From Clostridiales bacterium (GTDB lineage: Bacteria > Bacillota > Clostridia > Christensenellales > CAG-314), in NCBI GenBank assembly GCA_022508325.1, contig JAFLVL010000004.1:1-49398 (forward strand): a DNA stretch of 49,398 bases, in the 5' to 3' direction. The number at the start of each line of letters is the position of its first letter. Position 1 is the first letter of the stretch. Both the position numbers and the translations under genes were made by a program. Shown here in pieces: positions 10,551-39,570 of this stretch. The notes below the pieces were generated by a model. The model saw only the letters and a program-made list of their open reading frames with translations. It had not been told where the DNA came from and ran no database searches.

Positions 10551-13500
10551 TTACATTTTGATAAGCTTGTTGTCCGCAATTGACAAAACGTAGGTTTCTA
10601 CGTCGGCAATACCCATTATGCGCTCAACTGCCAGCTTGTAGCTATTGAGCTGCATAGTGTAGCGCTCCTCCACCAGGTCACTGCGCGAAGTGTACTTGAA
10701 GTCAATCACCACTGCGCTGTCTTTCTTTATCACGAGCAGGTCAATCACACCCTGCAACATAACCTCGTCGTTAAAACGTTTGTCTTTGGCTACTTGACTG
10801 TACGGCGCGCTGAGCATGAAGGGAATTTCGTGGTACACCTTGCCACCGTCCAGCAACGCCAGTAGCTCCTGGTTATGCAACGTTTCGAACACCAAATCGA
10901 CGTCAATTTGCTCGGCAAATCTTTGTTCGACTTTTCCACTTGCCACCAGTTCGTCGAGAGTTTGCCGTATCTGCTCGACAGTCGCGTCATACGACACGTA
11001 TTGATACAGCTTGTGATACGCCGTTCCCACGAAATTGCGGTCATTATCGGCGCTCAACGTGAACTCCTCTCGCGGTTCGTCGGTCAAATCTATATACTCT
11101 TTATCGAGAGCCGAACTGACGATTTTAGACGGCATCTGCGTCTCATTCCTATATTGATAAACGTAGCTTAGCTGACGCTCGATAGAGGCGGCGTCCACCT
11201 TTGTTTTGTCGATTAATTCTACATTCTTTTCTTGCGGCGATTGTTCATCGAACGTAGGCGGAATGTTGATGTCCAGTCCTTTCACCTTGTCTGTGTCGCG
11301 AAGCTCCAGTACCGTTGGCAACAGCCAATCGAGGTGGGAAGATGCGCGGTTGGGCAAAGTGGGGAATGCTTTGAGATCTGCCTCACTTACGGTAGCCACG
11401 ATATTCAAAAGATACTTCGCGCGGGTCAACGCAACGTAGAGCAGACGCATTTCTTCCTCGCGTTGCTTGTTGTGATTGACCAGGCGCGCGGCGTAAAATT
11501 CCAGCGTTTCAGCTTTCTTCATATCGTCGAAATCGTAGTAGCGAGTGGCTAATCCCAAATCGCTATTTTGCTCTACTGCGTAGTAGTCGAATTTGATAGG
11601 TGACTCAACGCCCGCGACGAACACGATGGGGAATTCCAGACCTTTAGACGCGTGCATAGTCATGATTCTCACAGCGCCGCTTTGGCTCAGTCCTTCATCT
11701 GCGCGACTGTTCTCCGTCTCGTCGATATATGACAAAAATTTATCTATCGACTGCGCGTAACTTGCGCCATTGAGACTGTCGATAAATGCGTACAATTTTC
11801 TGATTCTGAGCGCGCCGTTGGGTAGTCCCTGAACGTACAAATGATAGTTGGTTTTTTGCAGAACACGCAATGAGACTTCGTCTACGCTTGCGCTCCTCGA
11901 ATAGAACCGCAAATCGTCCAAAAAGTTCAAAAACTGTCGAATTTTCCACCCCAGTTCGCGTTTTTTCTCACCCCAGGTGGAATTTTCGCCATTTTTTGCA
12001 TATTCCAGCAATCGCTTATAGAATGGAATGCGACCCTTTGTATCCAGGCGAATATTGCCCAACTCCGCTTCTGTGAATCCTCCCAATGGAGACAGACACG
12101 CGCCCACGATACTGACGTCGTTGTAGGGGTTGTCAAGCACTCTGAAAAGGTTGACCAAATCCTTGATTTCCTTGGTCGACAGACCGTCGGCGTTGAAGTT
12201 GGCAGTTGCGGGAATATTGTTTGCGACGATGGCGTTGTATACGTCCAATGCCTTGTCCTTCATGCCTCGCATAAGTATTACTATGTCTCCGTAATTTATA
12301 TGCTTGGTTACCTTTACTTTCTCGCCATGTTCGTTTTTTTCTTCGACGGTATACGCCTTGCCGACGTACTCTTTTATACGCCGCGCAATCAATTCGCCTT
12401 GGCTCATTTCGGCGGGTTTTTCGGGGGTGGCGGTTATGTCGTAAATGTCGTCAATCTGTCTCTGTTCGCTGTCATGAGTTACCAAAACATCTACCCTTGT
12501 AGAAGGCGTGGAAAGGGTCGGCTGAGTAGGACCTTTGAGCTGAGCAGTAACTCTGTAATCTACCTTGCCGAAGTCATTCGTCATCACACGATTGAACACG
12601 AAGTTTACAAAATCCAGTATCTCGGTATTGGTACGAAAGTTGTCGTTCAACTCCTCGACGCGTCCCTTGTCCGTAGCTTTGTAGTCGCTGTATTTGTCTG
12701 TGAATATCGACGGTTCGCAACCGCGGAATCCGTAAATGGACTGCTTGACGTCGCCCACCATAAACAGATTGTCGGGCGAAGAAATCGCCCTTACTATCGC
12801 CTCTTGAATGGGGTTTGTGTCTTGGTATTCGTCTACAAAAATATACCTATATCTACTGCGAATCTCCATGCGCGTAGCGTCGTCGTCAAGTAACTTCAAG
12901 CAGAGATGCTCCAAATCGTCATAGTCCACTCCACCGCGCTGTTTCTTCGCTTCGAAATACGCCTCGTCAAATCTCACAACAATCTCCGCCAGCTTGCCGG
13001 TATATGCCTGCGCGCGTCTGTTTTCCTCCCAGAGCGTCGACAGTGTTTCTCCGTTTTGAACACGAAACAGGGCTGCATACTTTCTCCTGTATTCCGTCAA
13101 CTTATCTCTTAGCTTTACGTACTGCGCGCGAATCTGTTCCTCAACTTCCGTCATGGGAACGGAATCGTCCTTTGGCGGCATGGTCTTAAATTTGTAATTG
13201 GTGAGACCGTGAATGGCGTCCTCCAAATTATCTAGCTTTATGTCGTTCAACACGTCGGCGTTATGCTCTAATACCGCCGTGATTTTCGTCAGCCCTTCGT
13301 CGCGACTGTTGTCGGCAAGCCGGACCAAATTTCGGTGATAGTACTTCACCATCTGTGACACGTCGTCAAGAATCGTCCTTATTATTGGGTTGTTCTCGCT
13401 GTAATTGAGAAAATTCTCTTTTTTCTCACCGTACCACTGCCCGAAATTCTCCAAACAGCGCGAGAATGAATACAGGCGCAGAATAATTTTTCTGAAGTTC

Positions 13501-13991
13501 TCCTCTTTCCTCTTGCTGGAGAAAATCTTGTAAACCTGCCTAAAAACCTCGTCGTCTTGCGAAAAATATTCCTGAAAAAGGGTGTCTAAAACGTTGCTTT
13601 TGATAGTAGACACGGTCGCGTCGTCCAGTATTGCAAAAGCAGGGTCAATATCCAGAACGTAAAAATAATTGCGCAAAAGCTCGCTGCAAAAAGAGTGCAA
13701 CGTGCAAATACTAGCCGAATCTATATTCTCCAATGCTTCCACAACGCGCGGATTATTGCGCTTTTTCGACAGTTTCTCCGCAAGGCGCGCCTTCATTTGG
13801 GCGGCGGCAAGGTTAGTGAAGGTCACTACTACCATTTCGTCGACCTTCTCTCCCTCTTCAATCAGCGCGGCTATTCGCTCAATCATTACGGTGGTTTTGC
13901 CCGTGCCTGCCGATGCGGAAACGAGCATATTTTTACCGCGAAAACTTATTACGTTTTGCTGCGATGGGGTGTATTTTACTTCATTACTCAT
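10551..13991 (-). CDS. addA: ATP-dependent helicase/nuclease subunit A
   Basis: SASAGTGKT, VDEYQD, VGDVKQSIYGFRG, TMHASKGLEF, YVALTRA, QGVIDL..IDFK nuclease. Confidence 0.95.
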   Translation of the reverse strand: MSNEVKYTPSQQNVISFRGKNMLVSASAGTGKTTVMIERIAALIEEGEKVDEMVVVTFTNLAAAQMKARLAEKLSKKRNNPRVVEALENIDSASICTLHSFCSELLRNYFYVLDIDPAFAILDDATVSTIKSNVLDTLFQEYFSQDDEVFRQVYKIFSSKRKEENFRKIILRLYSFSRCLENFGQWYGEKKENFLNYSENNPIIRTILDDVSQMVKYYHRNLVRLADNSRDEGLTKITAVLEHNADVLNDIKLDNLEDAIHGLTNYKFKTMPPKDDSVPMTEVEEQIRAQYVKLRDKLTEYRRKYAALFRVQNGETLSTLWEENRRAQAYTGKLAEIVVRFDEAYFEAKKQRGGVDYDDLEHLCLKLLDDDATRMEIRSRYRYIFVDEYQDTNPIQEAIVRAISSPDNLFMVGDVKQSIYGFRGCEPSIFTDKYSDYKATDKGRVEELNDNFRTNTEILDFVNFVFNRVMTNDFGKVDYRVTAQLKGPTQPTLSTPSTRVDVLVTHDSEQRQIDDIYDITATPEKPAEMSQGELIARRIKEYVGKAYTVEEKNEHGEKVKVTKHINYGDIVILMRGMKDKALDVYNAIVANNIPATANFNADGLSTKEIKDLVNLFRVLDNPYNDVSIVGACLSPLGGFTEAELGNIRLDTKGRIPFYKRLLEYAKNGENSTWGEKKRELGWKIRQFLNFLDDLRFYSRSASVDEVSLRVLQKTNYHLYVQGLPNGALRIRKLYAFIDSLNGASYAQSIDKFLSYIDETENSRADEGLSQSGAVRIMTMHASKGLEFPIVFVAGVESPIKFDYYAVEQNSDLGLATRYYDFDDMKKAETLEFYAARLVNHNKQREEEMRLLYVALTRAKYLLNIVATVSEADLKAFPTLPNRASSHLDWLLPTVLELRDTDKVKGLDINIPPTFDEQSPQEKNVELIDKTKVDAASIERQLSYVYQYRNETQMPSKIVSSALDKEYIDLTDEPREEFTLSADNDRNFVGTAYHKLYQYVSYDATVEQIRQTLDELVASGKVEQRFAEQIDVDLVFETLHNQELLALLDGGKVYHEIPFMLSAPYSQVAKDKRFNDEVMLQGVIDLLVIKKDSAVVIDFKYTSRSDLVEERYTMQLNSYKLAVERIMGIADVETYVLSIADNKLIKM

Positions 13992-16900
13992 TTTTTCACC
14001 GTTTTGTCTATCGTAGTCTTGTCAACGACAACGTTTTTCAAGTCTCGCGGTTCGTGTGTATACACGTCGCCGAAATCGCAAATCGAGCGGTAGTCGCAGA
14101 ACTCGCACATTTTCTCAAAGGGATTGACTGCCGCGTAGCCCTTATGCATTAGCTCTCCCGCGCGCGCAATGAGCTTGTATGCGTATTCCGTCTGGTTGTC
14201 AAATTGCTCCGCAGTCAACATTTTGTTATCTCTGTCCTGTTTGTGAACAGCATTGTCTTTTGTCAAACGCAAAGAAAGCTTCTCGCTCTTGCCGCTACTC
14301 CAAGAGGTATCTATTGCGCGAGCCACGTCGACGTCATCGAGCGTTCTACCGTTGTAGGTATAGACGACATTTTCGTTTAGGTCGGTAAAATTGTCGTGCA
14401 TATTGAAGTAATAGAACCCCGCGGGACGCATTTTGCCGTTGCCCGAGTCCAATTTGAGACTGTCCTTGACAGCCTTGACGTAGACAAGCAACTGCATTTT
14501 TTGTCCGTCGTAAAGGTACTTCTCGCTATAAGACGCCGCCTCCGCGCCACTCTTGTAGTCTACCACTATGAACAGGTTGTCCTTGGTTTTGTCCTTGGCA
14601 GGCAGTACGTCAACGCGATCGACTACGCCCTTCAAGTAGAACTCACCGCCGTCAAACGCTACGACTACGGCAGGCAGTGACTTGGCGTTTTCAGTTTCAT
14701 CTCCGTCGTCAATTTTTCCATCAGACGGACGGGTTTCACTGCCGAAATTTAATTCCGCGGCATAATTTTTGAACTCGGAATTGCGCAACTGTTGCTTGGT
14801 CACCTTGCACATACGCGCGGCTTCGGCTTTGAGCTGCATCAATACGCCTTCCATTTGACGGTCGGTTCTCATTCCCTTGTAGAAATCTTCCGAAAGAGCC
14901 TTTTCGAACCACTCGTACGCCTTCTCCCTAGTGTTAGCGTCATCCTCGTCCAAATCTATATTTTTCACATATTTTTCCAATACAAAGTGAAGAATCGTAC
15001 CCAAATCGGCAGATTTCAGCTCGGCAATAGGGCGCGGTTGCACGTTTAGCCCATAGTGAAAATAGAAACTGTACGGACACTTGAAAAACGTCGTCAACTG
15101 AGACACGCTGGTAGCGGATTTTTTTAGGTACAGCTCGCCGCCGCGTTCCACCATAACAGCCTTTCCGTCCTTATTAAAGGCGTATTTTTTCGCCTCGTTT
15201 TTGTATTTTTCACGCAAAAACTCGTATAAAGGCAGCGTTGCCGCCTGCTTGTCCTTTACGCGCCTGTCGTAGAGCACGAGCTTTTCTATCGCCTGTTTCT
15301 TGGTGTAAACGCCGTCATCCGTAACGCTAGACGGTCTCAACGGAGCGTTCCCGATTTGGAAAAGCTCGGCAAATTCTGCAATGAAGGGCGATGGCAAAAG
15401 ACTGTCTGCGCCGTCCGCCGTCGTGTAAGAAACGTATAGCTTTTCTGTTGGCTCCAATAGCAGTTGAAACAGACTGAACCGCTCGCGCTTGTTCTCAACT
15501 TGAATTCGAGGCTCGACGTTTATGCCCGCTCTGACCAACTCTTCTATATTTCTGTCTGAGAGTAGCTTGCAGTCATTTTTAACTATGGGCATCGCGCCTT
15601 GGTTTGCGCCCAGCAATGCCAGAAATTTAATATCGTGCTTGCGCGCCTTCGCCATGTTGGCAAATACCACGCAATCGTTGTAGACGGGAATGACGGAGAC
15701 TTTCACAGAAGCCACGCCTGCCGTAAACAGCTTAATAAATTCGTCCAGCTTGACGAATTTGTCCCCCATTACATTTGCCGCCTGCAATAACACGCTTTCC
15801 AGCTTTTCTTGAGCTTGCGAGGTCACTTTTGCCTCAAATTCCAACCCCATGTCGCGTTGTTGGGTAGCAAAACTTGCATTTTTATCAGCTAATTTGGCAT
15901 AATCGATCAGATTGCGAATAACCGTCAAATACTCGTTGACCGTCGCGCCGTCGGGGACATGGTTGCTCCTATACAGCTCGTAAAAACGCTGTCTGAACGC
16001 GTCCGCTTGCGAATAGAATGGCTCGTCCTTGCCGAGATTGAAGCCTTTATAGCTATAGTTTACGTTGTATTTCAAACAGTAATTTTCAAACAAAAACACG
16101 TCGTCAGAGGGCTTTTTCCCATCAAAATTGCCGCAAAAGAGGTAATTTTTGACAAAGGGCAGCACAAAAGACAGCTTGGCGTTGTTCCTGTACAGCGTCA
16201 GATAATCGATTACAAACCGCGCGTAGGGGTGGTCGGACAGAACGAACTGCCTATCGCAAAAATAAGGAATTTCAAACTGTGAAAAAACCATCGATATGGC
16301 GTTAGAATACTTATCAACGTCACTCGTCACCACGTAAACGTCCTTGAAGCGTCCTCCTGCGCGAACGTGCTTTTGAATTCGGCAAGCTAGCGCGTAAACC
16401 TCGTTGACGCGAGTCGAACCCTCGAAAATTTCCACGAAATCGCCACCTGGGGTGGGGATTTTGTCGTCGTAACGGTACAAATTCTCACCGATTTGCCTTG
16501 CGTATTCGTGAGGATAGTCCCTTTTACCCTTGACGGTATTTGGCGTCAGATTGTTGCGCTTACAAATATTTATAATTCCTTGATAAATGTCGTCAAGATA
16601 GAGGTGTCTGTCGCGCGCCCCATTGCCTACACAGCACGCCACCGTAACTCCACGACTTTTCAGCGCTAGTTGTTCAATGATAGAAAGCTCCTGCGCGGTG
16701 AAGTTGTCAAAGTCGTACAGATAGTAGTAGCCGTTCGCCGCTACGTCGGTCGTCGCAATCTCTTCACACAACAAATCCAGCTTGTCCGCCGAATCTATAA
16801 AACGACCCTCGGTATAGTCGCAATACGCCTGATAAAGCAACGCTATATCGCGAGCTTTGCCGGCAACGCTCTTGGGCAGCTCGGCTTTCATCAGGTCTTT

Positions 16901-17284: not shown

Positions 17285-17291
17285 AAATTAC

Positions 17292-17419: not shown

Positions 17420-17471
17420 ATTCAATTAGTAAACATTATCTTCGCGAACGCGAATTTGTAACGGAGACAAT

Positions 17472-18638: not shown

Positions 18639-18668
18639 CAAGATTTTTCCACCCCATATCAAAATATT

Positions 18669-18702
18669 AAAAAAATGCCTCTTGTAAAAGAGGCATTTTT
18701 TT
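18669..18702. terminator. bidirectional terminator
   Basis: AAAAAAATGCCTCTT-gtaa-AAGAGGCATTTTTTT. Confidence 0.85.
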
Positions 18703-18712
18703 GTTTACTTTG

Positions 18713-21130: not shown

Positions 21131-21246
21131 TTTTTTCCTACCCCATGTTGCATTTCTCAACAAAAATCGCCTAAAAACGCTGATTAATGTTATATTTATG
21201 CTATATTTGGTACAATTGCAAAAATTCCCACCCCATGTCGCGCTTT
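21131..21246. repeat. ACCCCAT-motif paired block (family A)
   Basis: Two direct ACCCCATGT cores at 21140 and 21230; the reverse complement aligns along its length with 39457-39570. Confidence 0.8.
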
Positions 21247-21281
21247 TATGGCAATTTTCTTAATTTTTTGCAAAAAGTAAT

Positions 21282-22390: not shown

Positions 22391-23110
22391 ATGATAGGAA
22401 CATTTATTGATGTCGGTTTCGCCGTTATACTCATTATAACTGTGCTGGTTGGACTTGCAGAAGGTTTTTCTAGGCAATTTTCTCGTCCGCTGTGCGGTTT
22501 GATAGCTATTTTCGGCGCAATCGGTTTGACAGCCTTTCTTTACACGATAATTTCACCGCTCAGCTTTTACACTGGTTTGGAGGCAAAAGCAACCGCTTTA
22601 TTTAGCGCAGATTTCTATTCGCAACAAGCATCAGACACCGACAGCTTGGCAGCGATCTTGTCCGGCGGCTATCTAAGAATACTTGCCAGCTCATCAGAAA
22701 TGATTTGGACGAAGATGCAAGCGATGAACGTCACCACTCTTGGAGATTATTTCGGCAAACTCCTAATCAAAGTTGCCGCACAATTCCTCATTTGGCTTGT
22801 GCTATATTTGGCAATAAAATATCTGTTGTTCGGAATCAAATACCTGATGACCAAGATTTCGCGCGTTGTAGTATTCAAGTCTATTGACAAAATCTTCGGT
22901 CTCGTTTGGTCGCTCGCGATAACCTATATTATCGTAATCAGCATTGTTCTGACAGCCGGCGAGCTCGTTTTGGGTCAGTTTTTCCCCGAAATAGGCAATA
23001 TGGTTGTAGAATACATTGCGCAAACCTCTGTTGTTAAATTCCTACACAACACAAACGTTATCGGCTCGTTCTTAGCAGATATTCTCGGTTGGTCGTTATT
23101 AGCCCTGTAG
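22391..23110 (+). CDS. CvpA (colicin V production) family membrane protein
   Basis: N-terminal ID..GL..GF, DKIFG motif, several TMs; typical yyaC neighbour. Confidence 0.7.
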   Translation: MIGTFIDVGFAVILIITVLVGLAEGFSRQFSRPLCGLIAIFGAIGLTAFLYTIISPLSFYTGLEAKATALFSADFYSQQASDTDSLAAILSGGYLRILASSSEMIWTKMQAMNVTTLGDYFGKLLIKVAAQFLIWLVLYLAIKYLLFGIKYLMTKISRVVVFKSIDKIFGLVWSLAITYIIVISIVLTAGELVLGQFFPEIGNMVVEYIAQTSVVKFLHNTNVIGSFLADILGWSLLAL

Positions 23111-23123
23111 TTTTATTTAATTC

Positions 23124-23153
23124 AGCCTGCGCATAAATCTGCGCAGGCTTTTT
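23124..23153 (+). terminator. intrinsic terminator
   Basis: AGCCTGCGCA-taaatc-TGCGCAGGCT followed by a T tract. Confidence 0.85.
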
Positions 23154-23680
23154 CTTACATAAAATAATTAATAGCCCCTTTTCGCATTCTCATTCGAGCT
23201 AATTCTCTAATACACTGTAATAACTCTAATACATTAATACACTGTACAATCACTAAACCAATCGAAAAAACATACAAGTCATAAAAAGACATCCGCCTCT
23301 AAAATAGACAAACTCTGCGTCTACTTTTTAGGCAGCGCGCAATTCACGCAAGCTGCGACAGCTTCATCACAGCTCATTAATTACTTAATTAAAGCAACAC
23401 TCGCCTTTTCTGCCATCGAAGCCCGAAGTCCATACGTTTCGCCTCTCACTCCTAATTATTAACATATTTTTTCAAAAAGCCAGAACGCCGTGCTGAAATT
23501 ACGCAACAATTCTGCGTAAAGTCCTACTTTAACCCAGTTTGAGCATTTATAGCACAATTTAACAAATGTTTAACGTATGCGGCCTAACACACATGGAAAC
23601 ATATAGATATCAGACCAATAAATTGCTTTCTGCGCACTCTTATAATTATAGACTCTTTCTTTCATATCCTTTTTTTTGTT

Positions 23681-23696
23681 TGTTTCACATGAAACA
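23681..23696. promoter_or_regulatory. parS: parS centromere site
   Basis: TGTTTCACATGAAACA (1 mismatch to TGTTTCACGTGAAACA). Confidence 0.9.
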
Positions 23697-23885
23697 ACTC
23701 TCGACCGTTGCACATGTCACATAGACACTCTACAGTATTTTAAAACAATCGACCCAACGTCATCTAGCCCAGCTTACAAGTTCTGTCTACACATTCCTCT
23801 CGAAATCCACACTAAATATATATTACACAAACCGCATACAAATCCGTGTGTTCCTATTTTTTTATAGTAATTATCGCATAAATTA

Positions 23886-23901
23886 TGTTTCACGTGAAAC
23901 A
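23886..23901. promoter_or_regulatory. parS: parS centromere site
   Basis: perfect TGTTTCACGTGAAACA. Confidence 0.95.
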
Positions 23902-24199
23902 ACTCTTTAAACAAGAAAAGCACAAAACAGTTTCTCAGACAAAAACTGTCAATTTGGCAAAGCTTACCTTTCTAGAACCCGATCGCATAAGGGCCGCAAC
24001 AGCATATTGTGTTTTATTTCTTATATAAATGAATTACAGAATAGAATAAGCCACTGATAAGCAATCGCTGTCAGTCTTTCTTTGGAGCAAATATTCATCG
24101 GTTTTAATCGACAAAATCAAACTGAAGAGTGGCTTACGGACATCAAAACACCACAAATCGCCTTTAAACACTAAGCAAAAAGCGAACAGCAAAGATAAA

Positions 24200-24215
24200 T
24201 GTTTCACGTGAAACA
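24200..24215. promoter_or_regulatory. parS: parS centromere site
   Basis: perfect TGTTTCACGTGAAACA. Confidence 0.95.
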
Positions 24216-24339
24216 TATAAGGTCACGAGAAAGCTGGTACAAGCATTATGACCATAAATGGTGGGAAATTCGACAGAATCAACACGGCGTAAAATTCTCA
24301 AATAATATCAATGCAGCCAGACTTTAATTGATAATACAT

Positions 24340-24355
24340 TGTTTCACATGAAACA
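24340..24355. promoter_or_regulatory. parS: parS centromere site
   Basis: TGTTTCACATGAAACA. Confidence 0.9.
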
Positions 24356-25175
24356 ATCGTGTAAAAGAGGATGCGTCATGATTGAGACAAACACTAGAAG
24401 CACGTAAGGCAAAAAATAGTTAAATTACTTTTGTTACGAAAGGCAAACTATCTTATGAATAACGTCAAACAATGTGCCACAGAATTTCACAAATAAACCA
24501 GCAAAATACGCCGTTTAAAAGAAATTTAAGTGGTATTTCGAGCCTAAATAGACAATCATGTAGATAATTATGGTGATTTCAACGCGAAAAGCGTTGAAGA
24601 TTGTCTGTACTCAAACCACACCTCGCGCAGCTCGCATCTATATTGATTGTGGAGTCAATCGCTCAAAACTCAACACAATAGTAAGATATAAAGAAAAAAA
24701 AACGGTACATCAAATTAATCAGTAGCCTTCAGAAAGTTATTAGAAATAGTGGTAGGCAGAGATATTTGAAAACCGCACAATCCAGCAATGCAATTGGAGC
24801 CAAAGTTATCATTAACTCGCAATTAAACCAGCAAGACTCTTTGTAAAAAGTAATTTGATTCTTCGCCCCGCGGTAGTTCGTACAATCTGAAGGAAATGGA
24901 TCGAAAAAATAACCAGCCGAAAGGCTAAGTGCGGGTTATTGCAGCGAAGAAATTAGTGCTGCAACGTATTTTAGTTAATATAAAATCATTGACTTAAACA
25001 AATTATGAGCGAACGATGTTCGCTATTGAAAATCGCGGCAATAATGAATATCGCTTGTATTTAAACTTAAAAATGAGCAAATTGTCTCGCCATTACATTT
25101 TATTATCTCAGAATGTTATAAAAAATTGCCTCAATTTTTCAGAGTTAATTTGAATAATTCTGTTAGAATGGCTAT

Positions 25176-25244
25176 TTTGACCAGCTTTTATAACATAATT
25201 ATTCGTGATTGAGCGCGAATAATTATGTTATAAAATAAGTCAAA
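25176..25244. repeat. long inverted repeat (20 bp perfect arms)
   Basis: TTTTATAACATAATTATTCG (25186-25205) / CGAATAATTATGTTATAAAA (25216-25235), with outer TTTGAC/GTCAAA. Confidence 0.9.
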
Positions 25245-26611
25245 TTTTTGAGCCGGCACGCCATCGGATTTCTAGTGAGAAAGCTCTACAGTCTAAACAA
25301 GCAAATCGCGCACAAATGAAAAAGTAGAAACGCCAAGTAAAAAAATTGAAACTAGAAGTAGATATTGAGATACAACAAAATTAGTGGAATCCTTCATGCA
25401 GAAAAGACATGTAACAAAACTGCAACATAAAGAGCAGAGGGAACCCCTTATCAAATTGCACGAACTCAGAGAGTCACATTGTGGAGCACATCACAATTCG
25501 AAAAGTGAATTGTAGCGTAATTCAGTATGCGAATCACCCCATTCTAGCTAGGTAGTTTCGAGGCTGACCACTAAAAAAAATTCCGAACTACATAGAGCGC
25601 GCCCCTAATCAACATTAGTGAGATTATTCCGAAAACACCACCAATACGAGATCTGCAAATAGTAGTGAGGACACACAACCCTCACTACATGCGAAATCGC
25701 AAATATATGTTATACTAGTGTTACTCTACTCACAGTAGAATGCAAGTTTAAACGCCCGAAAGCCCACAAAAAGACAGCCTAGCATCACTATATCATCAAA
25801 AAAATATTCCGACTGACATTTCCGACGTGTTAAGCAAGAAATGAGCACAAAATAAACAGTATTTAACGTCGCGAAAGCCTTGTCATTAGAAAGAACAAAT
25901 TGCATCTTGCTGTACTTCGTTAATTTTAAAAATTCATTTATGCATGATCTATTTATAGAGACATTTAATGATATTTTAGTTAGCGCGCAGCAAATTTGAA
26001 TAAACAGGTATGGCTGCAAAAGCCTAAAAAAATATGAAACAACCGAAGCGACTTTTTCAACAACAAAGTATACGTCAGGGCTTATGATAATTTATCGATT
26101 TTGTCCCCATTGAACGCCGTAACACCAAGAGTTGTGGGGAGCGAATTAGAGTTGTCACAGTTCTAATGATATGATTTGAAACGCAAAAATTGATATTTAC
26201 TTATAACCGCTAGAAACGCGAGAGTGGAGAGGACCAATAAGCTCGATAGAGGCATATGTTGTGAAGTCAAAGGTTAGCAAGGATGTAAACTTTTTAAGGA
26301 ACAAAACAAAAAATTGCATTGTGGTTCTAATAGAATCTAGCCGGCCAAGTGCCGAAGTAAAATAGCGACTTTTGTGCTTGTTCTTTTAGATATCTATACG
26401 CTTCACTTTTCGCCGTCAGAGTTCGAATTTAAGATTGATCATTTGGACAAATATTGCTAAAAAATTAGCGGCAAAATATTCCGTGGAGCGACAATAATGG
26501 GACACTAATTTTTAAAGCGCGCATTTGTTAAATGCAGTTCTACAAACCGCAGAATTTCGATTTTTATTAATGTCAAAAACTCGTAATTATAGCGCATTTT
26601 ATTCCATTTTT

Positions 26612-26730
26612 TGACATGGGGTGAGAAAAATCGAATTATTTTTGTCTAAAGCAACCAAAATAGTCAGATTTTTACAGTTTTCCTTAATTTATTTTATCGA
26701 AATTTGCCATTTTTCTCACCCCATATCGCG
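26612..26730. repeat. ACCCCAT-motif block (family A), inverted pair
   Basis: GACATGGGGTGAGAAAAA ... TTTTTCTCACCCCATATC, cores ~100 bp apart. Confidence 0.8.
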
Positions 26731-26859
26731 AAATTGCGTATTTATAAACGAAACAAAAAAAAGAAAAACTTAAACAAACTCTTGTTTTAGATTTTGAATA
26801 TAAGAATTGACTCGCTAATTGTTAGCATAACTTGACAGATTAGACACACACAAAAAATT

Positions 26860-27798
26860 TTATTTTCCTGAGTATTTTATAAGCATTTCAACGTTACTCT
26901 GTTCTAACAATTTTCTTGATATTGACTGTATTTCTCCTATTGACAATTCGAGTAAGTTCTTGCTTGTCATCTTTGCAAATTTCGCAACTATTCTATTTGC
27001 TGCAAGCGCATGTCCATTGATATCTTTGGAAACATCTGCCTCGTATATAAACTGCTCCAATAAGTTCCTCTCGATCGAATAGATTAGCTCGACGAGCTTT
27101 GCTCTATATTCTAAATCTGTCGGACTCATTTCGGGGTATACTGCCAGGTCTTTTGCGTGCTGCGCCTCGTGCTTCAATAACGAAACAGCAAAACTCTCAG
27201 CCGAGAAATCATACGAGGACTTAATGCAATTTATAACGCCGTCACCATCCGACTAACCGCTAGCGCCAAGCGCGCCAAATGAAATATAATCATACCAACC
27301 TTTCGAGACAAAACCGTCTAATAGTTTAACTGTGTATTCCTGACTTCCGTTGGGCAATTCCACACTGTAATGTTTCAGCTCGGCACTCCGCCATATATAG
27401 GGACCATAGTATCCGCTAGTCTTGCCGCCCAAATAGTGATATGAGCGACGCTCGAATGCTTCCGCAACACAACCATTCTCAATTTCGCATAATTTCACAT
27501 TCTCATCTTCTATTTCAAAAAACCGCACAAACCCTCTTCTCATCGTTTCTGCGGCTTGGTCGGCCTGAGTTTCAAAATAAAAAACGTCTCGGTAATATTT
27601 TTGATAAATTAACAAAATCTCGTTTAAATAATCATCTACGTCAAAAGTTAAATATTTTTCATTTTCGAATAGGTCTATGTATTTTTGACACAATTCCGTT
27701 TGTCCGCACTCGCGCAGATATGCAATCGCTCGTTTTAATTGCCCCTTTATAATATATCCATAATAAATATTTTCGTTGTATTGCTTTTTGCACGCCAT
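26860..27798 (-). pseudogene. HExxH (zincin-like) protein interrupted by an in-frame TAG
   Basis: ORFs 27253-27798 and 26860-27177 share a frame; only the TAG at 27253-27255 separates ...FGALGASG*SDGDGVINC...SLLKHEAQH. GGAGG SD at the start. Confidence 0.85.
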
Positions 27799-28087: not shown

Positions 28088-28576
28088 ATGCAAGAAACTT
28101 TTGGACAAAGATTGCAACGCCTGCGCAAAAACGCGGGATTTACGCAAGAAGAAGTAGCGACAAAACTCAATATAACAGGGCAAGCCGTATCCAAGTGGGA
28201 AAACGACGTGTCTGCGCCGGACATTTCGCTTTTAGTCGAGCTGTCGGACATTTTGAGCGTAAGCCTTGACGAATTGCTGGGTAAAGAGCGCGAGACGACG
28301 CTAGTTCCTAAAGAGCAACGCAAAAATATTGACAATATGTTTTTCCGCATCAAGGTTAATTCCAACGAAGGCGACAAAGTAAACGTAAATATTCCGTTGG
28401 CGCTTGCAAAAGTGTTTTTGGAGGCAGGAGAAGTCTCATTCCCACAGGTCAACGGTCAGGACGTTCTCAGTAAAATTGACTTTCGCAAACTGTTTGAACT
28501 GGTTGAGCAAGGCGTAGTGGGTAAGCTCGTCGATATTGAAAGTGAAGGCAATCTAGTGGAAATTTGGGTAGAGTAA
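28088..28576 (+). CDS. XRE-family HTH regulator with C-terminal DUF2089-like domain
   Basis: LRKNAGFTQEEVA...QAVSKWEND..PD; AAGGAG SD. Confidence 0.88.
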   Translation: MQETFGQRLQRLRKNAGFTQEEVATKLNITGQAVSKWENDVSAPDISLLVELSDILSVSLDELLGKERETTLVPKEQRKNIDNMFFRIKVNSNEGDKVNVNIPLALAKVFLEAGEVSFPQVNGQDVLSKIDFRKLFELVEQGVVGKLVDIESEGNLVEIWVE

Positions 28577-28578
28577 TA

Positions 28579-28890
28579 ATGAAAATTCGCATAAAAGCAG
28601 ACAGACACAATATACATTTGTGGCTACCGACAAGTCTACTAAAAAGCCGCATTTGCTACCACATTTTGCAGAATGGGGTGAGAAAAAACGCGAAAAATGC
28701 AGAAATCTCGACACGCGAACAGGAGGAAAATGTCCCCAAACTGCCAACTCAACAAAAAACAGTCTGCATATCTCGCAAACAACAGTTGGATATGTACAAA
28801 GCCCTTAGACAAGTAATAAAAACACGCGGACACTTCAATATTGTGGAAGTGGAAAGCGCAGACGGTCAAAAAGTGCTCATTCGCGTATGA
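28579..28890 (+). CDS. hypothetical protein, partner of the XRE gene
   Basis: ATG 28579 just after the XRE stop; C-terminal IVEVESADGQKVLIRV resembles the XRE C-terminus. Confidence 0.7.
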   Translation: MKIRIKADRHNIHLWLPTSLLKSRICYHILQNGVRKNAKNAEISTREQEENVPKLPTQQKTVCISRKQQLDMYKALRQVIKTRGHFNIVEVESADGQKVLIRV

Positions 28891-29649: not shown

Positions 29650-30138
29650 TTATCTTGCTACAATCTCGTAGTGTATTCTTTGTCCTACATATTCGGGGCA
29701 AATCGTTTCTTCGCTCTTTTTTACAAACTGAAAGCCTGCGCTTTCATAAGTACGTTGCGCAGCAATCAAACGCTCATTTGTCCAAACAATTATCTTTCTT
29801 GCACCCTGCTCTTTTATGCGCCGAACTGCTTCTTGCATTTGTCGCTTTCCATAACCGTTACCCTTATATTTAGTTCCTATGCAATTATGCCCGACCTCTG
29901 CTAACTCAGGCAATTTCGTCGGGTTCCACGATACAAACCCTATCGGTTTTCCCTCCAAGACTGTCATAAATCCACTAAACTCGGCGATATGAGGATTATT
30001 ATAGAAGAAGTCGTCAAACTCCTGCCATTGACTTTGCCAAAATTCCTTAAATCTCGGCTCAAAAGAATAGCCATCTTTCAATAATGCCGCAAGCGTACCG
30101 CGAGGAAACTCTGTTATTTTTCTAAACTCAATATCCAT
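29650..30138 (-). CDS. GNAT family N-acetyltransferase
   Basis: YKGNGYG acetyl-CoA loop, AAQRTYESAGF. Confidence 0.9.
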   Translation of the reverse strand: MDIEFRKITEFPRGTLAALLKDGYSFEPRFKEFWQSQWQEFDDFFYNNPHIAEFSGFMTVLEGKPIGFVSWNPTKLPELAEVGHNCIGTKYKGNGYGKRQMQEAVRRIKEQGARKIIVWTNERLIAAQRTYESAGFQFVKKSEETICPEYVGQRIHYEIVAR

Positions 30139-30265: not shown

Positions 30266-30300
30266 AAAACAAAACCCCACCTTTTATTCAAAGATGGGGT
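30266..30300 (-). terminator. terminator of parAB
   Basis: Minus strand ACCCCATCTTT-gaata-AAAGGTGGGGT-TTTGTTTT. Confidence 0.75.
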
Positions 30301-32244: not shown

Positions 32245-32390
32245 GCGCGTTTTTTCCACCCCATATCACACGTTTTTCTCACCCATATCGCATTTTTCGG
32301 CGAATTAGCCCATAGAATTGGCATTTTAAGTGAATTTCGTCGCTTTTGTGCATTTTCCCTACCCCATGTCTATTTTTCGCACCCATTTGA
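32245..32390. repeat. ACCCCAT-motif block (family A), four direct cores
   Basis: Cores at 32258, 32281, 32361 and 32381 (two lack one C). Confidence 0.8.
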
Positions 32391-32459
32391 ATATTTTCGT
32401 ATCAAATCTGGCTTTTCTCGTTCGCGCTTATTTGGTTTCCGAGACACCGCGCCTAAAAC

Positions 32460-33963: not shown

Positions 33964-33975
33964 ATATAGGAACTT

Positions 33976-35823
33976 ATGAAAAACTACGATATTATTGTTA
34001 TCGGCGCAGGACATGCGGGGTGTGAAGCCGCGCTAGCGTCCGCGCGTTTGGGGTGCTCGACACTTATGCTAGCCACCAATCTCGACACGGTGGCATTTCT
34101 TGCGTGCAATCCGAGCGTTGGCGGCACTGCAAAGGGGCAGATTGTCAAGGAAATTGACGCCTTAGGTGGCGAAATGGCTATAAACGCCGACAAAAGCCTT
34201 CTTCAAATGCGCATGTTGAACCGCGGCAAAGGTCCTGCGGTATATTCTCCGCGCGCGCAAGTCGACAAAAACGCCTACCACGTCAATATGAAACAGACGG
34301 TAGAGCACACACCCAATCTGTATCTCAGACAAGGTGAGGCAGTGGACGTCAGCGTCAACGACGACGGCAGTTTTGCCGTCAGGACGGCAGTGGAGCTCAC
34401 CTATCAAGCAAAAGCGGTGGTTTTGTGTTGCGGTGTATATCTCAATTCAAGAACAATCGTGGGCAAATGTGTCAAAAACAGCGGCCCCAACGGCTTTGCC
34501 AACGCAGAATTTTTAACGAACAGTCTCGTAAAGCTCGGTTTTTCTGTACAACGCTTTAAGACAGGCACGCCCGCAAGAGTTCGTCTTAATTCCATCGACC
34601 TAGACAAGACGGTAGAGCAATGCGGCGAAGAGGACGTTCGCCCATTCTCCTACCTTACTGACAGTATTCCCGCCACAAAGCGCAGTTGCTATCTGACATA
34701 TTCTACCGAAGAAACGAAACGGATAATTTTGGAAAACAAGCACCTTGCTCCTATCTATAACGGTAGCGTTTCGGGCGTCGGTCCTCGCTATTGCCCCAGC
34801 ATTGAGGACAAGGTGGTGCGCTTCGCAGATAAGGAAAGGCATCAAATTTTCTTAGAACCCGAGTCGGTGGATACCTGCGAATTCTACGTTCAAGGCGCGT
34901 CGTCGTCCATGCCCGCCGAAATTCAAGAGCAGATTTACAAGAGCATCGAAGGACTGGAAAACGTCGAGATTATGCGCGACGCCTACGCCATCGAATACGA
35001 CTGCATTGACGCAACACAGCTTGACGCAACGCTTATGGCGAAACATGTCAAGGGACTGTTCTTTGCAGGACAGATAAACGGCACTAGCGGCTATGAGGAA
35101 GCGGCAGGTCAGGGAATAGTTGCGGGTATCAACGCCGAACGTTTTGTCCACGGCAAATCGCCCTTCGTTCTGCGTCGCGACAACAGCTATATAGGCGTGC
35201 TGATTGACGACATTACGACTAAGCAAAATACCGAACCCTACCGCATGATGACCAGCCGCGCAGAACACCGTTTGGTACTTCGCCAGGACAACGCAGACCT
35301 ACGACTTTCGGACATGGGGTGGGAAATTGGGCTAGTTTCGCCCGAAAGATATGCAAAATTGCAACGAAAAAAGGCGCAAATTGCCGCAGCGGAAAAACAG
35401 CTTTCGAAGGTAGTCTCTCCCAAAATATACGGCAAGCTCTTTGAAGAAAAAGGCGAACCTATAACGGGCGCAGGGCTGACGGCGGACGAAATGCTACGCC
35501 GCGCTAATATCACCTGTAAGGACTTGCAGACTCTCGGTTTCTTCGAAGATATTGACGACGACGCGCTGTACGAGATTGAGATTGAGTGCAAGTACCGCGG
35601 TTACATTGAGAAGGAAAAGGAAGCGATAGCGCAGGCGAATAAGCTGGAAAATAAGCCCCTGCCCGACGACATAGACTACATGACTATCGACGGATTGCGT
35701 ATCGAGGCGCGACAAAAGCTTGACAAAATCCGTCCCAAGAACCTCGGACAAGCGGGACGAATTCTCGGCGTGTCACCTGCTGATATTCAAATACTGATTG
35801 TTTATTTGTCTACTAGAAAATGA
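33976..35823 (+). CDS. mnmG: tRNA uridine-5-carboxymethylaminomethyl synthesis enzyme MnmG (GidA)
   Basis: GAGHAGCEAA, CNPSVGG, RFKTGTP, GPRYCPSIEDK, AGQINGTSGYEEAA. Confidence 0.98.
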   Translation: MKNYDIIVIGAGHAGCEAALASARLGCSTLMLATNLDTVAFLACNPSVGGTAKGQIVKEIDALGGEMAINADKSLLQMRMLNRGKGPAVYSPRAQVDKNAYHVNMKQTVEHTPNLYLRQGEAVDVSVNDDGSFAVRTAVELTYQAKAVVLCCGVYLNSRTIVGKCVKNSGPNGFANAEFLTNSLVKLGFSVQRFKTGTPARVRLNSIDLDKTVEQCGEEDVRPFSYLTDSIPATKRSCYLTYSTEETKRIILENKHLAPIYNGSVSGVGPRYCPSIEDKVVRFADKERHQIFLEPESVDTCEFYVQGASSSMPAEIQEQIYKSIEGLENVEIMRDAYAIEYDCIDATQLDATLMAKHVKGLFFAGQINGTSGYEEAAGQGIVAGINAERFVHGKSPFVLRRDNSYIGVLIDDITTKQNTEPYRMMTSRAEHRLVLRQDNADLRLSDMGWEIGLVSPERYAKLQRKKAQIAAAEKQLSKVVSPKIYGKLFEEKGEPITGAGLTADEMLRRANITCKDLQTLGFFEDIDDDALYEIEIECKYRGYIEKEKEAIAQANKLENKPLPDDIDYMTIDGLRIEARQKLDKIRPKNLGQAGRILGVSPADIQILIVYLSTRK

Positions 35824-36497
35824 TAAAATTTTTACAAGAACAAGCAAATATTACGCTGACGGACGAAATGCGGCAAAAGCTTGACTTTTACTGCAAATTT
35901 TTGCGTGAGGAGAATAACAAGTATAATTTGACTGCGATAACCGACGAAGGCGAGATCTGGATTAAGCATTTCGTTGACAGTATTCTCGGCAGTGTGGCAA
36001 TTCCCGAAAACGCTACTGTTTGCGACGTGGGCAGTGGCGCAGGATTTCCCTGTTTGCCTCTTGCAATCGTTCGTCCCGACGTTGCAGTAACGCTCGTTGA
36101 TAGTCTGGAAAAACGCATCAATTTTACTAGGTCTCTTTGTCAACAGATAAATCTCAAGGCTGACTTTTTCCACGAGCGCGCAGAGGATTTTTCTCGACCC
36201 CATTCGGAAAAATTCAACGTTGCCACCGCGCGCGCAGTTGCGCCGCTGAATATTTTGTTGGAATACACCGCGCAAATAGTGAAGGTCGGAGGAATTATCG
36301 TCGCATACAAGACAGATTTGAGTGAGCTTGAAATAGCGGCAAACGCCTGCAGACTACTAAACTTACAATTTGAGACGCATTACGACTTCGTTCTGCCTGA
36401 CGGTAGCAGGCGCGCTATATTAGTTTTCCGCAAAATCGCGCCCACTCCGAATAAGTACCCCCGCGGACAAAACAAACCTAGAAAACAACCACTGTAA
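35820..36497 (+). CDS. rsmG: 16S rRNA m7G527 methyltransferase RsmG (GidB)
   Basis: NLTAI, HFVDS, DVGSGAGFP, ARAVA, KYPR. Confidence 0.97.
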   Translation: MIKFLQEQANITLTDEMRQKLDFYCKFLREENNKYNLTAITDEGEIWIKHFVDSILGSVAIPENATVCDVGSGAGFPCLPLAIVRPDVAVTLVDSLEKRINFTRSLCQQINLKADFFHERAEDFSRPHSEKFNVATARAVAPLNILLEYTAQIVKVGGIIVAYKTDLSELEIAANACRLLNLQFETHYDFVLPDGSRRAILVFRKIAPTPNKYPRGQNKPRKQPL

Positions 36498-36531
36498 AAA
36501 GAGCCTATGAGTGTTTCTCATAAGCTCTTTT
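36497..36531. terminator. bidirectional terminator rsmG/jag
   Basis: AAAAGAGCCTATGAG-tgttt-CTCATAAGCTCTTTT. Confidence 0.75.
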
Positions 36532-36550
36532 AAATTATTATGTAATGTCA

Positions 36551-36589
36551 ATTAATTACCTTTGAATACGAACCCTGACGCCCAGCTGG
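36551..36589 (-). repeat. 3'-UTR repeat family D (after jag stop)
   Basis: 29/39 identity with 30321-30359. Confidence 0.6.
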
Positions 36590-36593
36590 AAGG

Positions 36594-37187: not shown

Positions 37188-37191
37188 ATCG

Positions 37192-38475
37192 TTACCTCAT
37201 ATAGCTTGCCTTGGAAGAATTGCTCTTTTGCTCTTCCTTGTCAAGCATTTTCAATACGAACTTTTCTACCGGTATGCGAAGAACTATGGTGGTAAGAATG
37301 GAGATAGTAGAGTTGACCACCATGTATATTGCGAACGCGCCGGTGTAGATAAAGCCGAAATATGCCATCATAAGCGGCATCAGTATCATTGTCATTTTGT
37401 TGGTTGCTGCTTGCTGTTGATTTTGCTGTACAGTCTCGCCCTTACGGTTCTTGCGCTCCAAGCGTTGCAAAATGAACTGAGAGGCGAACGACAAACCTAT
37501 AGACAGGAAGGGCAGAATCATCAAGCCGTTCCAGTTACCGTTGTTGCCGTAGCCGCCCATTGCAAGCACTGCGCCACGAATGGTATTGTAAGTTACCTCA
37601 ATACCTTTGTAGTCACTAACGTCTATTCCCGACGAAGAGAATCCGCCACCGGCGAACACGCCGCCGCTATACGGTTGCATAATGGTTGCCCATGTGTCGG
37701 GTTGCCAAACGTTCTGAATCCACAACCAGCTTTCGTGGTTGTTGACGTACCAATCCTGTACAGCCTCCAACGCTTTGCTCTCGTATTCCGAGCAGAGTGT
37801 CGGGTTTACCATTTTCGCGCCGCTTATAATATCCGTTTGCGCATTGAGTATGTTTTTGGTACTTTCGGATTTTTTCGCCTCTTCATACTTAATAAAGACG
37901 TTCTCGTATCCTTCCCTGCTCTCGATTTGCGTGATTAACTCGTCGTTTTCCATAATTTGCTCAACGAACGTATCGTGGTAAGTATACGACAGGCTCTGGA
38001 AGGACGTGATACTGGAGTAAGTGGAGTAGTTCCTGAGTCCGCCGAACACTATGAAGAATATGACCATCGAGATTATCATAGGCAAACACATAGAAGCCAT
38101 GGAGTAGCCCTGTTTTTTGTAGAGCTTTTGCTTTTCTTCGTTTGCGCGTTGAGTATTTGCGCCAAACCGCTTGTCGATAGCCTCTACGAGCGGTTGGATT
38201 CTTTGCATTTTCAGCGAGCTTTTGCGCGAAGAATAGCGTTGCCAGAAGTCCAAAGGCAACATGAGTATCTTCAAAAACACGGTGAAAACTACAACCGTCC
38301 AACCGTAATTGCCTATCCACTTGTGCATAACGTACACAAGCTTGCCGATAATCCCCAGATCGTCTTTGGAGTAGTCAAAAAAGTTAGCTGAGCTTCTGTT
38401 ACAGCTACTTAGCACTCCCAAGCACAACGCCGCAAGCGCAATAAGCAATACGACGCTAAGTATTCTTTTTTTCAT
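37192..38475 (-). CDS. yidC: membrane protein insertase YidC/Oxa1
   Basis: Lipobox LSSC, NYGWTVVVFT, LYKKQG..MCLP, WLWIQNVWQPD. Confidence 0.92.
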   Translation of the reverse strand: MKKRILSVVLLIALAALCLGVLSSCNRSSANFFDYSKDDLGIIGKLVYVMHKWIGNYGWTVVVFTVFLKILMLPLDFWQRYSSRKSSLKMQRIQPLVEAIDKRFGANTQRANEEKQKLYKKQGYSMASMCLPMIISMVIFFIVFGGLRNYSTYSSITSFQSLSYTYHDTFVEQIMENDELITQIESREGYENVFIKYEEAKKSESTKNILNAQTDIISGAKMVNPTLCSEYESKALEAVQDWYVNNHESWLWIQNVWQPDTWATIMQPYSGGVFAGGGFSSSGIDVSDYKGIEVTYNTIRGAVLAMGGYGNNGNWNGLMILPFLSIGLSFASQFILQRLERKNRKGETVQQNQQQAATNKMTMILMPLMMAYFGFIYTGAFAIYMVVNSTISILTTIVLRIPVEKFVLKMLDKEEQKSNSSKASYMR

Positions 38476-38494
38476 TGTTTCTCCTGTTAACTAC

Positions 38495-38740
38495 CTATAC
38501 GTGCCACTTCGCGTTGCCTTTTAGGTTCATAGGCACCGGGTCGAAACCGCCCTTTCCCCAAGGCGCGCAACGGCAGAGTCGTTTGAGCGTCAGCCAACTG
38601 CCTGCAAAAAATCCGTGCTTTGTATACGCTTCCATGCTGTATACCGAGCAACTCGGGCTGTAAATACAGGTTTTGCCGCCCTTCCATTTGGAAACGGTGG
38701 CCTTGTATAGCTTAAGTAGGGCAATAGCCAAGTATTTCAT
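38495..38740 (-). CDS. yidD: membrane protein insertion efficiency factor YidD
   Basis: CIYSPSCSVY..KHG..RLCRCAPW..GGFDPVP. Confidence 0.95.
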   Translation of the reverse strand: MKYLAIALLKLYKATVSKWKGGKTCIYSPSCSVYSMEAYTKHGFFAGSWLTLKRLCRCAPWGKGGFDPVPMNLKGNAKWHV

Positions 38741-39069
38741 TGCAACAGCCCCGCCTTTTCAAACAGCTTTTGAACGCTCGCCACAATCTCGTCGTATCGG
38801 TACTCCTCGTGACGCCGCGGAATAAAAACAGCGTTGAACCCCTCTTTTACGTTGGGCATAAGCGTAGATACCGCCGCTTTCAGCTGTCGCCTTATGCGAT
38901 TGCGCTGTACCGCCTTGCCATATTTTTTGCTGACGGAAAAGCCAACCTTGCTTTGCTTGTTGTTGCTTGCGCAGTAGAGCAATATGAAGTTTTTGTCTGC
39001 AACGCTTGACGCGTGTTTGTACACGTAGTTGTATTGGTAGTTTTTTTTAAGTCTGTAGATAGACTTCAA
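38737..39069 (-). CDS. rnpA: ribonuclease P protein component
   Basis: RLKKN, VGFSVSKKYGKAVQRNRIRR. Confidence 0.96.
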   Translation of the reverse strand: MKSIYRLKKNYQYNYVYKHASSVADKNFILLYCASNNKQSKVGFSVSKKYGKAVQRNRIRRQLKAAVSTLMPNVKEGFNAVFIPRRHEEYRYDEIVASVQKLFEKAGLLQ

Positions 39070-39081
39070 AGCGACGACCTG

Positions 39082-39216
39082 TTATGCGGACAGCTTATGA
39101 CGACCCTTGTTTCTGCGTCTGGCAAGTGTTCTTCTGCCACCGGTGGTCTTCATTCTTGCGCGGAATCCGTGTACCTTGCTTCTTTGTCTTTTCTTGGGTT
39201 GGTAAGTTCTTTTCAT
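39082..39216 (-). CDS. rpmH: 50S ribosomal protein L34 (not in ORF track)
   Basis: [44 protein letters not shown], 44 aa, AAGGAG SD. Confidence 0.97.
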
Positions 39217-39361
39217 TTCGTTCTCCTTTTTGGGGTCGCGCCGCCACTGTCGTGGGGCATTGTTTTTGCGTGCAAAGTTATTTGCTTTTCATTGCTAATT
39301 ACGTATGCACAGCCTGCCTAAATGCGCGCATAATTCCCATAATAATATAATTAACTCGTAT

Positions 39362-39390
39362 ATTTTAACAAAGTATGGAAGTAAAGTCAA
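39362..39390 (-). promoter_or_regulatory. sigma-A promoter of the rpmH operon
   Basis: TTGACT-17 bp-(TGT)TAAAAT. Confidence 0.75.
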
Positions 39391-39456
39391 GTGTTTGGAG
39401 TTAGTCCGTCTAGCGCGCTAAATATTAGTTAAAATTGACGCTCCATTATTCGAAAA

Positions 39457-39570
39457 CACGACATGGGGTGGCGATTTTTGCAAATTTTGCTAATTATAAT
39501 ATTCGTATATCATAAGTGCGAGTTTTTTAGCAATTTTTGGCGAAAAATGCGATATGGGGTGAAAATTTTT
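39457..39570. repeat. ACCCCAT-motif paired block (family A)
   Basis: ATGGGGT cores at 39463 and 39554; homologous to the reverse complement of 21131-21246. Confidence 0.8.

Follow-up and report, generated by a model that had tools for sequence, protein, structure and literature searches.

A 26-bp word written over the genomes of a small clade of uncultured Clostridia, with conserved sites and a domain-restricted layout

To our knowledge, words that overwrite genomes have been described only from two bacterial families with uptake sequences, the Pasteurellaceae (uptake signal sequence, USS) and the Neisseriaceae (DNA uptake sequence, DUS), and from the cyanobacteria, where the word is HIP1; what causes such words to colonise a genome is still argued for all of these cases. 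Here a further word of this sort is described, a 26-bp asymmetric motif of the form TTTTTCTC-ACCCCAT-GTCGCR-TTTTT, from a stretch of 49,398 nucleotides of a Clostridiales bacterium (Christensenellales; assembly GCA_022508325.1, contig JAFLVL010000004.1, positions 1 to 49,398, the whole of which is termed the window) and from the remainder of its genome. According to the available part of one report, HIP1 sites are conserved, their density has a periodicity of 10-90 kb, and a nucleoid role has been proposed (PMC5861425); the accessible text of a later study links HIP1 to transformation (PMC13756078). The motif resembles HIP1 (GCGATCGC) in being a hyper-abundant word in and between genes, at sites conserved between genomes and with a density uneven over tens of kb, and no gene-level function is known for either. 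The differences are that HIP1 is an 8-bp palindrome, a methyltransferase target, phylum-wide and able to exceed one copy per gene, whereas the motif is ~26 bp long and asymmetric, carries A/T tracts, occurs in few species and is present at ~1 per 3 kb inside domains only.

The uptake sequences offer a second parallel: USS and DUS, like the motif, have a GC-rich core with A/T tracts, lie in all frames and alter the peptides encoded, form inverted pairs that serve as terminators, are regularly spaced and differ as dialects between relatives, as set out in the available portions of two reports (PMC2817400, PMC2397512), the former of which, by Findlay and Redfield, describes how uptake sequences alter the proteome. 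They occur, however, at ~1 per kb across the core genome of Gram-negatives with type IV pili, whereas the motif has an overall density 5-7 times lower, conserved deserts, and host genomes in which no pilus ATPase or platform genes were found. Among the titles and abstracts given by one literature search, no report of sequence-specific uptake in Gram-positives was found. Elements of the REP, BIME, REPIN and MITE types are likewise short, dispersed, enriched between genes and often arranged as hairpin pairs at gene ends, but they are inserted, self-folding units outside genes, in contrast to a motif that arose by substitution, has no structure of its own in single units and is also found in genes. 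The ParB and Noc sites (parS and NBS) are 14-16-bp palindromes; as protein-binding words scattered on the chromosome, partly in genes and enriched at the origin, they would be comparable if the motif is bound by a protein in the same way. They differ in being palindromes with a cognate ParB-family protein, whereas the motif is asymmetric and there is one ParB_N protein per genome. Searches of published text found none of the motif's 13-mers, and the 11-mer matches were to unrelated sequences.

The window's own genome (G000, in which the window is contig C34) is a metagenome bin of 1.31 Mb in 77 contigs, 77% complete and with 46% G+C. It was compared with relatives in the same genus: the sister species G050, the motif-poor G017 (nearly the entire genome, 1.60 Mb), and G004, G051 and G055. 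All of these organisms are uncultured and known only from metagenome bins, which is the main limit of the analysis. Copies were called with a position matrix of 34 columns built from the copies of G000 itself, at a threshold of at least 14 bits (strict, at least 20 bits); its consensus is TTTCCATTTTTCTCACCCCATGTCGCATTTTTGG and its information 25.5 bits. The sequence-only reading that first drew attention to the motif had described it as dispersed and named genome-wide over-representation as a check, and such over-representation is seen in the window and beyond it: G000 has 177 matrix matches against 3, 7 and 3 in three simulated genomes (fourth-order Markov model, Markov-4), and 132 against 0, 0 and 0 at the strict threshold. 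Once overlapping matches are merged, 175 are left in 141 loci, an overall density of ~1 per 7.5 kb. The window contributes 20 matrix matches; within it CACCCCAT occurs 11 times (mean 0.48 and largest 2 in 100 shuffles), and the 20-mer first proposed as consensus occurs 8 times with up to 3 mismatches, against 0.01 expected. The k-mer lists of G000 are headed by a second over-represented word family, GGCTCGGGTATTCG and CGAACACCCTCG, whose density in 10-kb bins shows no relation to the motif's (rho -0.04).

In the aligned copies the core ACCCCA is 93-100% invariant and is followed by T in 86% of copies, R, and T in 94%, the GTCGCR part is semi-conserved, and both flanks are A or T, with T preferred and C or G nearly absent, and lie 21 bp (two helical turns) apart. 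The asymmetry of the consensus means that the motif is not a short palindrome. Close neighbours (within 35 bp) were found for 47 of the 175 matches, at fixed distances, giving 9 tandem pairs at 19-22 bp, 6 convergent pairs at 23-24 bp and 7 divergent pairs at 27-29 bp. The one convergent pair that was folded forms a hairpin of -23.7 kcal/mol (z -5.6) that has an A run on one side and a T run on the other, resembling a two-way terminator, and the two single units analysed do not fold (z -0.3 for the 26710 copy and +1.0 for the 21222 copy). The densest cluster in the genome comprises five copies within 300 bp (contig C23, 8621-8921) and sits in a 1.9-kb gene-less stretch upstream of a gene for 3945 residues. 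Overall, 95 matches in G000 are intergenic and 82 coding (~46% coding), which represents a roughly seven-fold intergenic enrichment. The coding copies are found in all six strand-and-frame classes, 58 of them antisense and 24 sense; the purine-rich complement may simply be easier to accommodate in a coding strand.

In genes and after stop codons alike, the motif was created in place by base substitution. The coding matches were compared with orthologues in G017, and of 80 examined, 8 had no relative there and for another 10 the alignment failed to cover the site; among the 62 that were spanned, 52 show no indel, 9 have extra residues inserted in G000 and 1 has a deletion. An insertion of 7 residues (21 bp, one unit) was seen several times, at tandem copies in addA and in two C45 genes. 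Identity between G000 and G017 is 0.48 inside the motif and 0.71 in its flanks, and at C23 5412 none of 8 residues is kept, a multi-base patch having been replaced with no change of length. Motif-bearing intergenic gaps have a median of 193 bp in G000 and 189 bp in their G017 counterparts (n=31). Since most coding copies lack an indel and gap lengths are unchanged, the word has been written over existing sequence, and an inserted mobile element is thereby excluded; the decayed MITE that had been offered as an alternative was discarded on the same figures. MnmG provides the clearest example: G000 has RLSDMGWEIG where RLT[EA].G[RKH] stands in 17/17 genus relatives read (12 other-strand loci left out), the sister G050 has LTDMGWEIG, and the DMGW change is common to these two only. 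As this illustrates, coding sites deviate from the consensus residues of their families instead of matching them. A strong copy (32.3 bits) is also borne by comEC (contig C39, ~639-2783), where VFLTPYSI replaces LLVRPFYL of G017.

The motif is restricted to a small group of relatives. Its exact 17-mer gave 38 single matches in 185,579 species genomes, a set possibly lacking the window's own genome, and never two per genome; viral contigs gave 6 single matches. When 47 genomes of the genus were scanned with up to 2 mismatches, 45 matches were found in G000, 18 in G050, 10 in G055, 5 in G051, 4 each in G017 and G011, 3 in G008 and 0-2 in the remainder, roughly 30 genomes giving none, with reversed-pattern controls also at 0-2. 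A quick tree of the single gene mnmG makes G000 and G050 sisters (support 95) and places all genomes with a match, except G016, within one 15-member clade. With the full matrix, G050 has 41 matches in 400 kb, about the same density as G000, and G017 has 64 matches of at least 14 bits, of which 19 reach at least 20 bits. The sister species differ in dialect at position -2, where most G050 copies carry C (77%) and most G000 copies T (59%). A separate dialect was looked for in G017 and G004, where no comparable over-represented 11-mer was found (250 kb and 180 kb), and no GC-rich word is enriched in 31 orthologous gaps of G017. In metagenomes, the closest relative reached an MnmG identity of 82%, and among sequencing runs one from rodent gut matched the window, with 24/184 pieces at least 99% alike and no usable polymorphism at motif sites.

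Sites are conserved between species. G000 and G050 have the motif in the same gap at 7/10 intergenic loci with adjacent flanking orthologues and share 6/24 coding sites, mnmG included, and G000 and G017 have 4/31 intergenic loci and 2/62 coding sites in common. The copies are also patchily distributed, with 51/93 10-kb bins of G000 empty against 34 expected under a Poisson distribution and syntenic core stretches of 40-80 kb free of the motif (for example C1, 26 to 71 kb). These rich and empty stretches, tens of kb long, lie in the same places in G000, G050 and G017: bin density is correlated between G000 and G050 (rho 0.44, a value reached by 0/29 circular shifts), and 22/25 G017 matches lie in bins that bear the motif in G000, which are 47% of all bins (Fisher p 0.0007). 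As G050 shows deserts of 77 and 41 kb on a single 1.1-Mb contig, the patchiness is no assembly artefact. Inside rich stretches the mean gap between loci is 2.9 kb (median 2.9 kb in G050), and only 5% of gaps are below 1 kb, whereas 1000 simulations gave 27% and never so low a share; the even spacing rests on this deficit of short gaps, the test on the coefficient of variation being biased because domains are defined by gaps of at most 9 kb. The richest stretch in G000 and in G050 is the origin region, with 20 matches in 32 kb and 13 in 16 kb respectively; in G051 (0 matches) and G055 (1 match) this region is not rich. At ~205-210 kb of G050 contig C1, GC skew and gene orientation change sign in a motif-rich region that is likely to be the replication terminus.

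Several simple causes of the domains were considered and rejected. A two-organism bin or chimeric contigs would not account for them: no G017 bin is covered twice, one empty contig that was compared across the genus found no nearer match (DNA identity 79% or less), and the single contig of G050 shows the pattern too. Recombinant import as the origin of rich domains was set aside, G017 identity being the same in rich and empty stretches (p 0.47) and rich stretches being no more alike to G050 (p 0.67). Mixed gene orientation, finally, is an apparent correlate in G050, but not in G000 (rho 0.07, p 0.52).

Features of the window that bear on the motif, by position
Positions	Strand	Feature	Details
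7430..7455	+	weak copy inside uvrC, antisense	14.6 bits; G000 ELLGLKK vs ELLHLKK/EMLHLKK in three relatives
10493..10518	-	intergenic copy between hydrolase gene and addA end	matrix, at least 14 bits
11940..11987	+	two tandem copies in addA, antisense, 22 bp apart	28.9 and 32.5 bits
15836..15861	+	copy in addB, antisense	24.5 bits; RDMGLEF vs G017 QGEGLSF, no indel
16436..16461	-	copy in addB, sense	24.1 bits; KIPTPGGD vs G017 CTPMEATN, no indel
18643..18668	+	single copy between convergent genes	directly before separate two-way terminator hairpin 18668-18703
21132..21157	+	intergenic copy upstream of ftsH	20-mer match
21222..21247	+	intergenic copy right after stop of DUF1256 gene	20-mer match
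26605..26630	-	intergenic copy, left arm of pair 102 bp apart	word and 20-mer match
26710..26735	+	intergenic copy, exact match to the first-proposed 20-mer	0 mismatches
28662..28687	-	copy in doubtful open reading frame 28564-28890	26.5 bits; 21-mer in common with addA copy
30274..30300	-	parB terminator hairpin, stem with ACCCCAT/GTGGGGT	11-pair stem, then T run
32250..32297	+	two tandem copies between parA and mnmE	matrix; G050 has copy in corresponding gap (848700, authors' coordinate mapping)
32353..32397	+	two further tandem copies between parA and mnmE	matrix
35303..35328	-	copy in mnmG, antisense, encodes SDMGWE	23.9 bits, no indel
36189..36214	+	copy in rsmG, sense, encodes FSRPHSE	17.8 bits; relatives FARLHSE, FAKTHSE or similar; no indel
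39452..39477	-	intergenic copy upstream of rpmH	word match
39543..39568	-	intergenic copy upstream of rpmH	word match

By its gene annotation the window contains the neighbourhood of the replication origin, with uvrC, addA, addB, ftsH, a 3.7-kb gene-less stretch, parB, parA, mnmE, mnmG, rsmG, jag, yidC, yidD, rnpA, rpmH, a phosphorylase gene, dnaN and dnaA. The intergenic copies first reported at 18651, 21140, 21230, 26616 (reverse), 26718, 32258, 32281, 32361, 32381, 39463 (reverse) and 39554 (reverse) are all present, those at 32281 and 32381 with a shortened core, ACCCAT, as are the coding copies in addA (11948/11970, STWGEKKRELGWKI), addB (15844, RDMGLEF) and mnmG (35314, SDMGWEIG). The addB copy at 15844 agrees with the 21230 copy in 20/21 bases, as had been noted, and the 21-mer said to be identical at 11955-11975 (-) and 28674-28694 (+) is so. 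In addA, a 7-9-residue insertion surrounds STWGEKK relative to four relatives, and in the next unit ELGW replaces EIVT/IA.K. Two early statements hold in part: the copy in ORF28579 (NGVRKNA) is there, but the open reading frame (28564-28890) is doubtful as a gene, having no Pfam family, no G017 relative and a low coding score; and the parB terminator stem has the core, but those 7 bases only, so that it is not a matrix match and the full motif is absent. Copies at uvrC 7438 (weak), 10504 (reverse), addB 16447 (reverse) and rsmG 36197 had been missed.

The window has further unusual features. The gene order at 39231-46825 is rpmH, a purine-nucleoside-phosphorylase-family gene, dnaN, rubrerythrin, a PnuC-like transporter and dnaA (45419-46825), and dnaA is therefore downstream of dnaN instead of adjoining rpmH. 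The stretch 23110-26860 (3.7 kb) has no credible gene and no Rfam family above threshold, and its G+C content is ~35%, compared with 46% genome-wide. All four parS sites known in the assembly lie here, at 23681, 23886, 24200 and 24340 (span 23681-24355), so that the stretch resembles a dedicated centromere-like region. A GNAT acetyltransferase (29650-30138, minus strand) has 87% identity to a G050 gene, against a median of 78% for other proteins, and no relative in G017; recent transfer or strong constraint on the gene may account for this.

The motif's behaviour is closest to that of HIP1, with its conserved sites, 10-90-kb density pattern and proposed nucleoid role, and an array of binding sites is therefore favoured over an uptake or recombination drive, which comes second. 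By this analogy, and tentatively, we read the motif as a clade-specific iterated genomic signal, a recognition-site array for a putative DNA-binding protein that would mark chromosomal domains. The word would be the binding site of a sequence-specific protein, which would recognise the core through base contacts and the A/T tracts through their shape or bending; sites occupied in arrays might then mark or compact domains, a role in nucleoid structure, and the inverted pairs (23-24 bp), which make hairpins with A and T runs, are probably used secondarily as two-way terminators. Of the possibilities raised at the outset, a site for a chromosome-organising protein fits best, but no such protein was found.

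A number of points weigh against an array of binding sites. The candidates examined did not yield a binding protein: each genome has a single ParB_N protein (5/5), with ordinary parS sites elsewhere, and the helix-turn-helix protein encoded nearby in the window was rejected because many genomes that lack the motif have a full-length relative of it. Three proteins that G050 has and G017 lacks were also considered as candidates and gave no clear lead. Sites that cost residues in conserved proteins fit a drive acting per site better than weak selection on ~175 sites. No measured feature accounts for where the domains lie, as G017 identity, gene length, intergenic length and strand switching are equal in rich and empty stretches and only G+C at third codon positions differs, being slightly lower in the rich ones (0.539 vs 0.563, p 1e-5). 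Finally, genes were called with a crude caller of our own (1102 genes, 86.6% coding in G000), and G050 was comparable over 400 kb plus 16 kb only.

The next candidate, which we consider unlikely but by some way the strongest of the alternatives, is an uptake or recombination signal like USS and DUS, in which a bias in the DNA imported or recombined would let motif-improving alleles spread through molecular drive, and terminators would be recruited from inverted pairs. Frame independence and origin by substitution are as described for uptake sequences, the proteome effect is of the kind given in the available text of Findlay and Redfield (PMC2817400), HIP1 is itself now tied to transformation in the accessible part of its report (PMC13756078), and even spacing, hairpin pairs and the differing dialects of the sister species all agree with such a picture. 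ComEC and DprA are present, and the comEC of G000 itself bears a copy; both proteins, however, occur in 5/5 genomes, motif-rich or motif-poor, and thus equally in G017 and in G004, which has no pattern match. Searches with family profiles found the T2SSF platform protein of a type IV pilus or pseudopilus in 0/5 genomes (77-97% complete) and no true T2SSE ATPase in any of the five, the weak P-loop matches, one of them marginally above the cut-off, being to proteins of 730-770 aa or ~300 aa. Nor was a ComEA-sized HHH_3 protein found, the sole match being a 724-aa protein that is presumably Tex-like and not ComEA. Core-genome deserts of 40-80 kb are kept between species, and we know of no such conserved deserts for USS or DUS; genes rich in the motif, moreover, show no greater likeness between G000 and G050 than genes free of it. 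The description of the motif as uptake-sequence-like therefore stands for its behaviour (over-representation, all frames, hairpin pairs) but is not supported for mechanism, given that no pilus ATPase or platform gene was found, the low density and the deserts.

It is improbable that the motif is at root a transcription element, a terminator half-site, roadblock or pause element after genes with the coding copies as by-products. In favour of this reading, intergenic density is highest in convergent gaps (22 in 21.7 kb), lower in tandem ones (56 in 94.8 kb) and lowest where genes diverge (8 in 29.4 kb, 6 of the 8 coming from the window), the motif lies at a median of 58 bp past the upstream stop in tandem gaps, with 22/56 in the first fifth of the gap, and the convergent pair folds strongly. 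Single units, however, have no fold, ~46% of copies lie in genes, orientation relative to genes is unbiased (25 same, 31 opposite), and the domain patchiness is not what terminators would give; the copy at 18651 is moreover unpaired in the predicted fold and followed by a terminator of its own. With respect to replication, polarity is weak, unlike that of Chi or KOPS: the T-rich strand is lagging for 87 copies, leading for 55 and ambiguous for 33, intergenic single copies split 28 to 25, and the skew of coding copies follows their antisense preference.

Slightly less credible still is a functionless by-product of sequence-biased repair or templated short-patch conversion, with which the multi-base patches replaced at constant length, the 21-bp tandem duplications and the restriction to one sub-clade would be consistent; sites are nevertheless kept in the sister species and evenly spaced, and no template or enzyme was identified, none having been searched for. 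A small repeat of the REP, BIME or MITE kind, mobilised by a transposase, might be suggested by the enrichment between genes and at gene ends, the inverted pairs and the second family of frequent words in G000, but is largely refuted and very improbable given coding copies that mostly lack indels, gaps no longer than those of G017, single units without a hairpin, orthologous placement in the sister species, and no repeated copies in viral contigs or other species.

With some diffidence, then, the motif may be proposed as the first signal of the USS, DUS or HIP1 kind in the Firmicutes, a 26-bp word actively written over sequence, whether by a binding protein under selection or by conversion drive, and set out in ~3-kb arrays within heritable domains. 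The case is a young one, confined to one sub-clade of one genus in which rich, intermediate and empty genomes stand side by side; being young and patchily spread, it should therefore allow the trans-acting factor to be found by comparing presence and absence, and the tree could tell whether the protein or the word came first. With a layout that is even, restricted to domains and conserved, the link between such words and chromosome domains is more direct than in the case of HIP1, and if the proposal is true the motif would be a barcode from which the domains of bacterial chromosomes could be read, one that originated inside a single genus.

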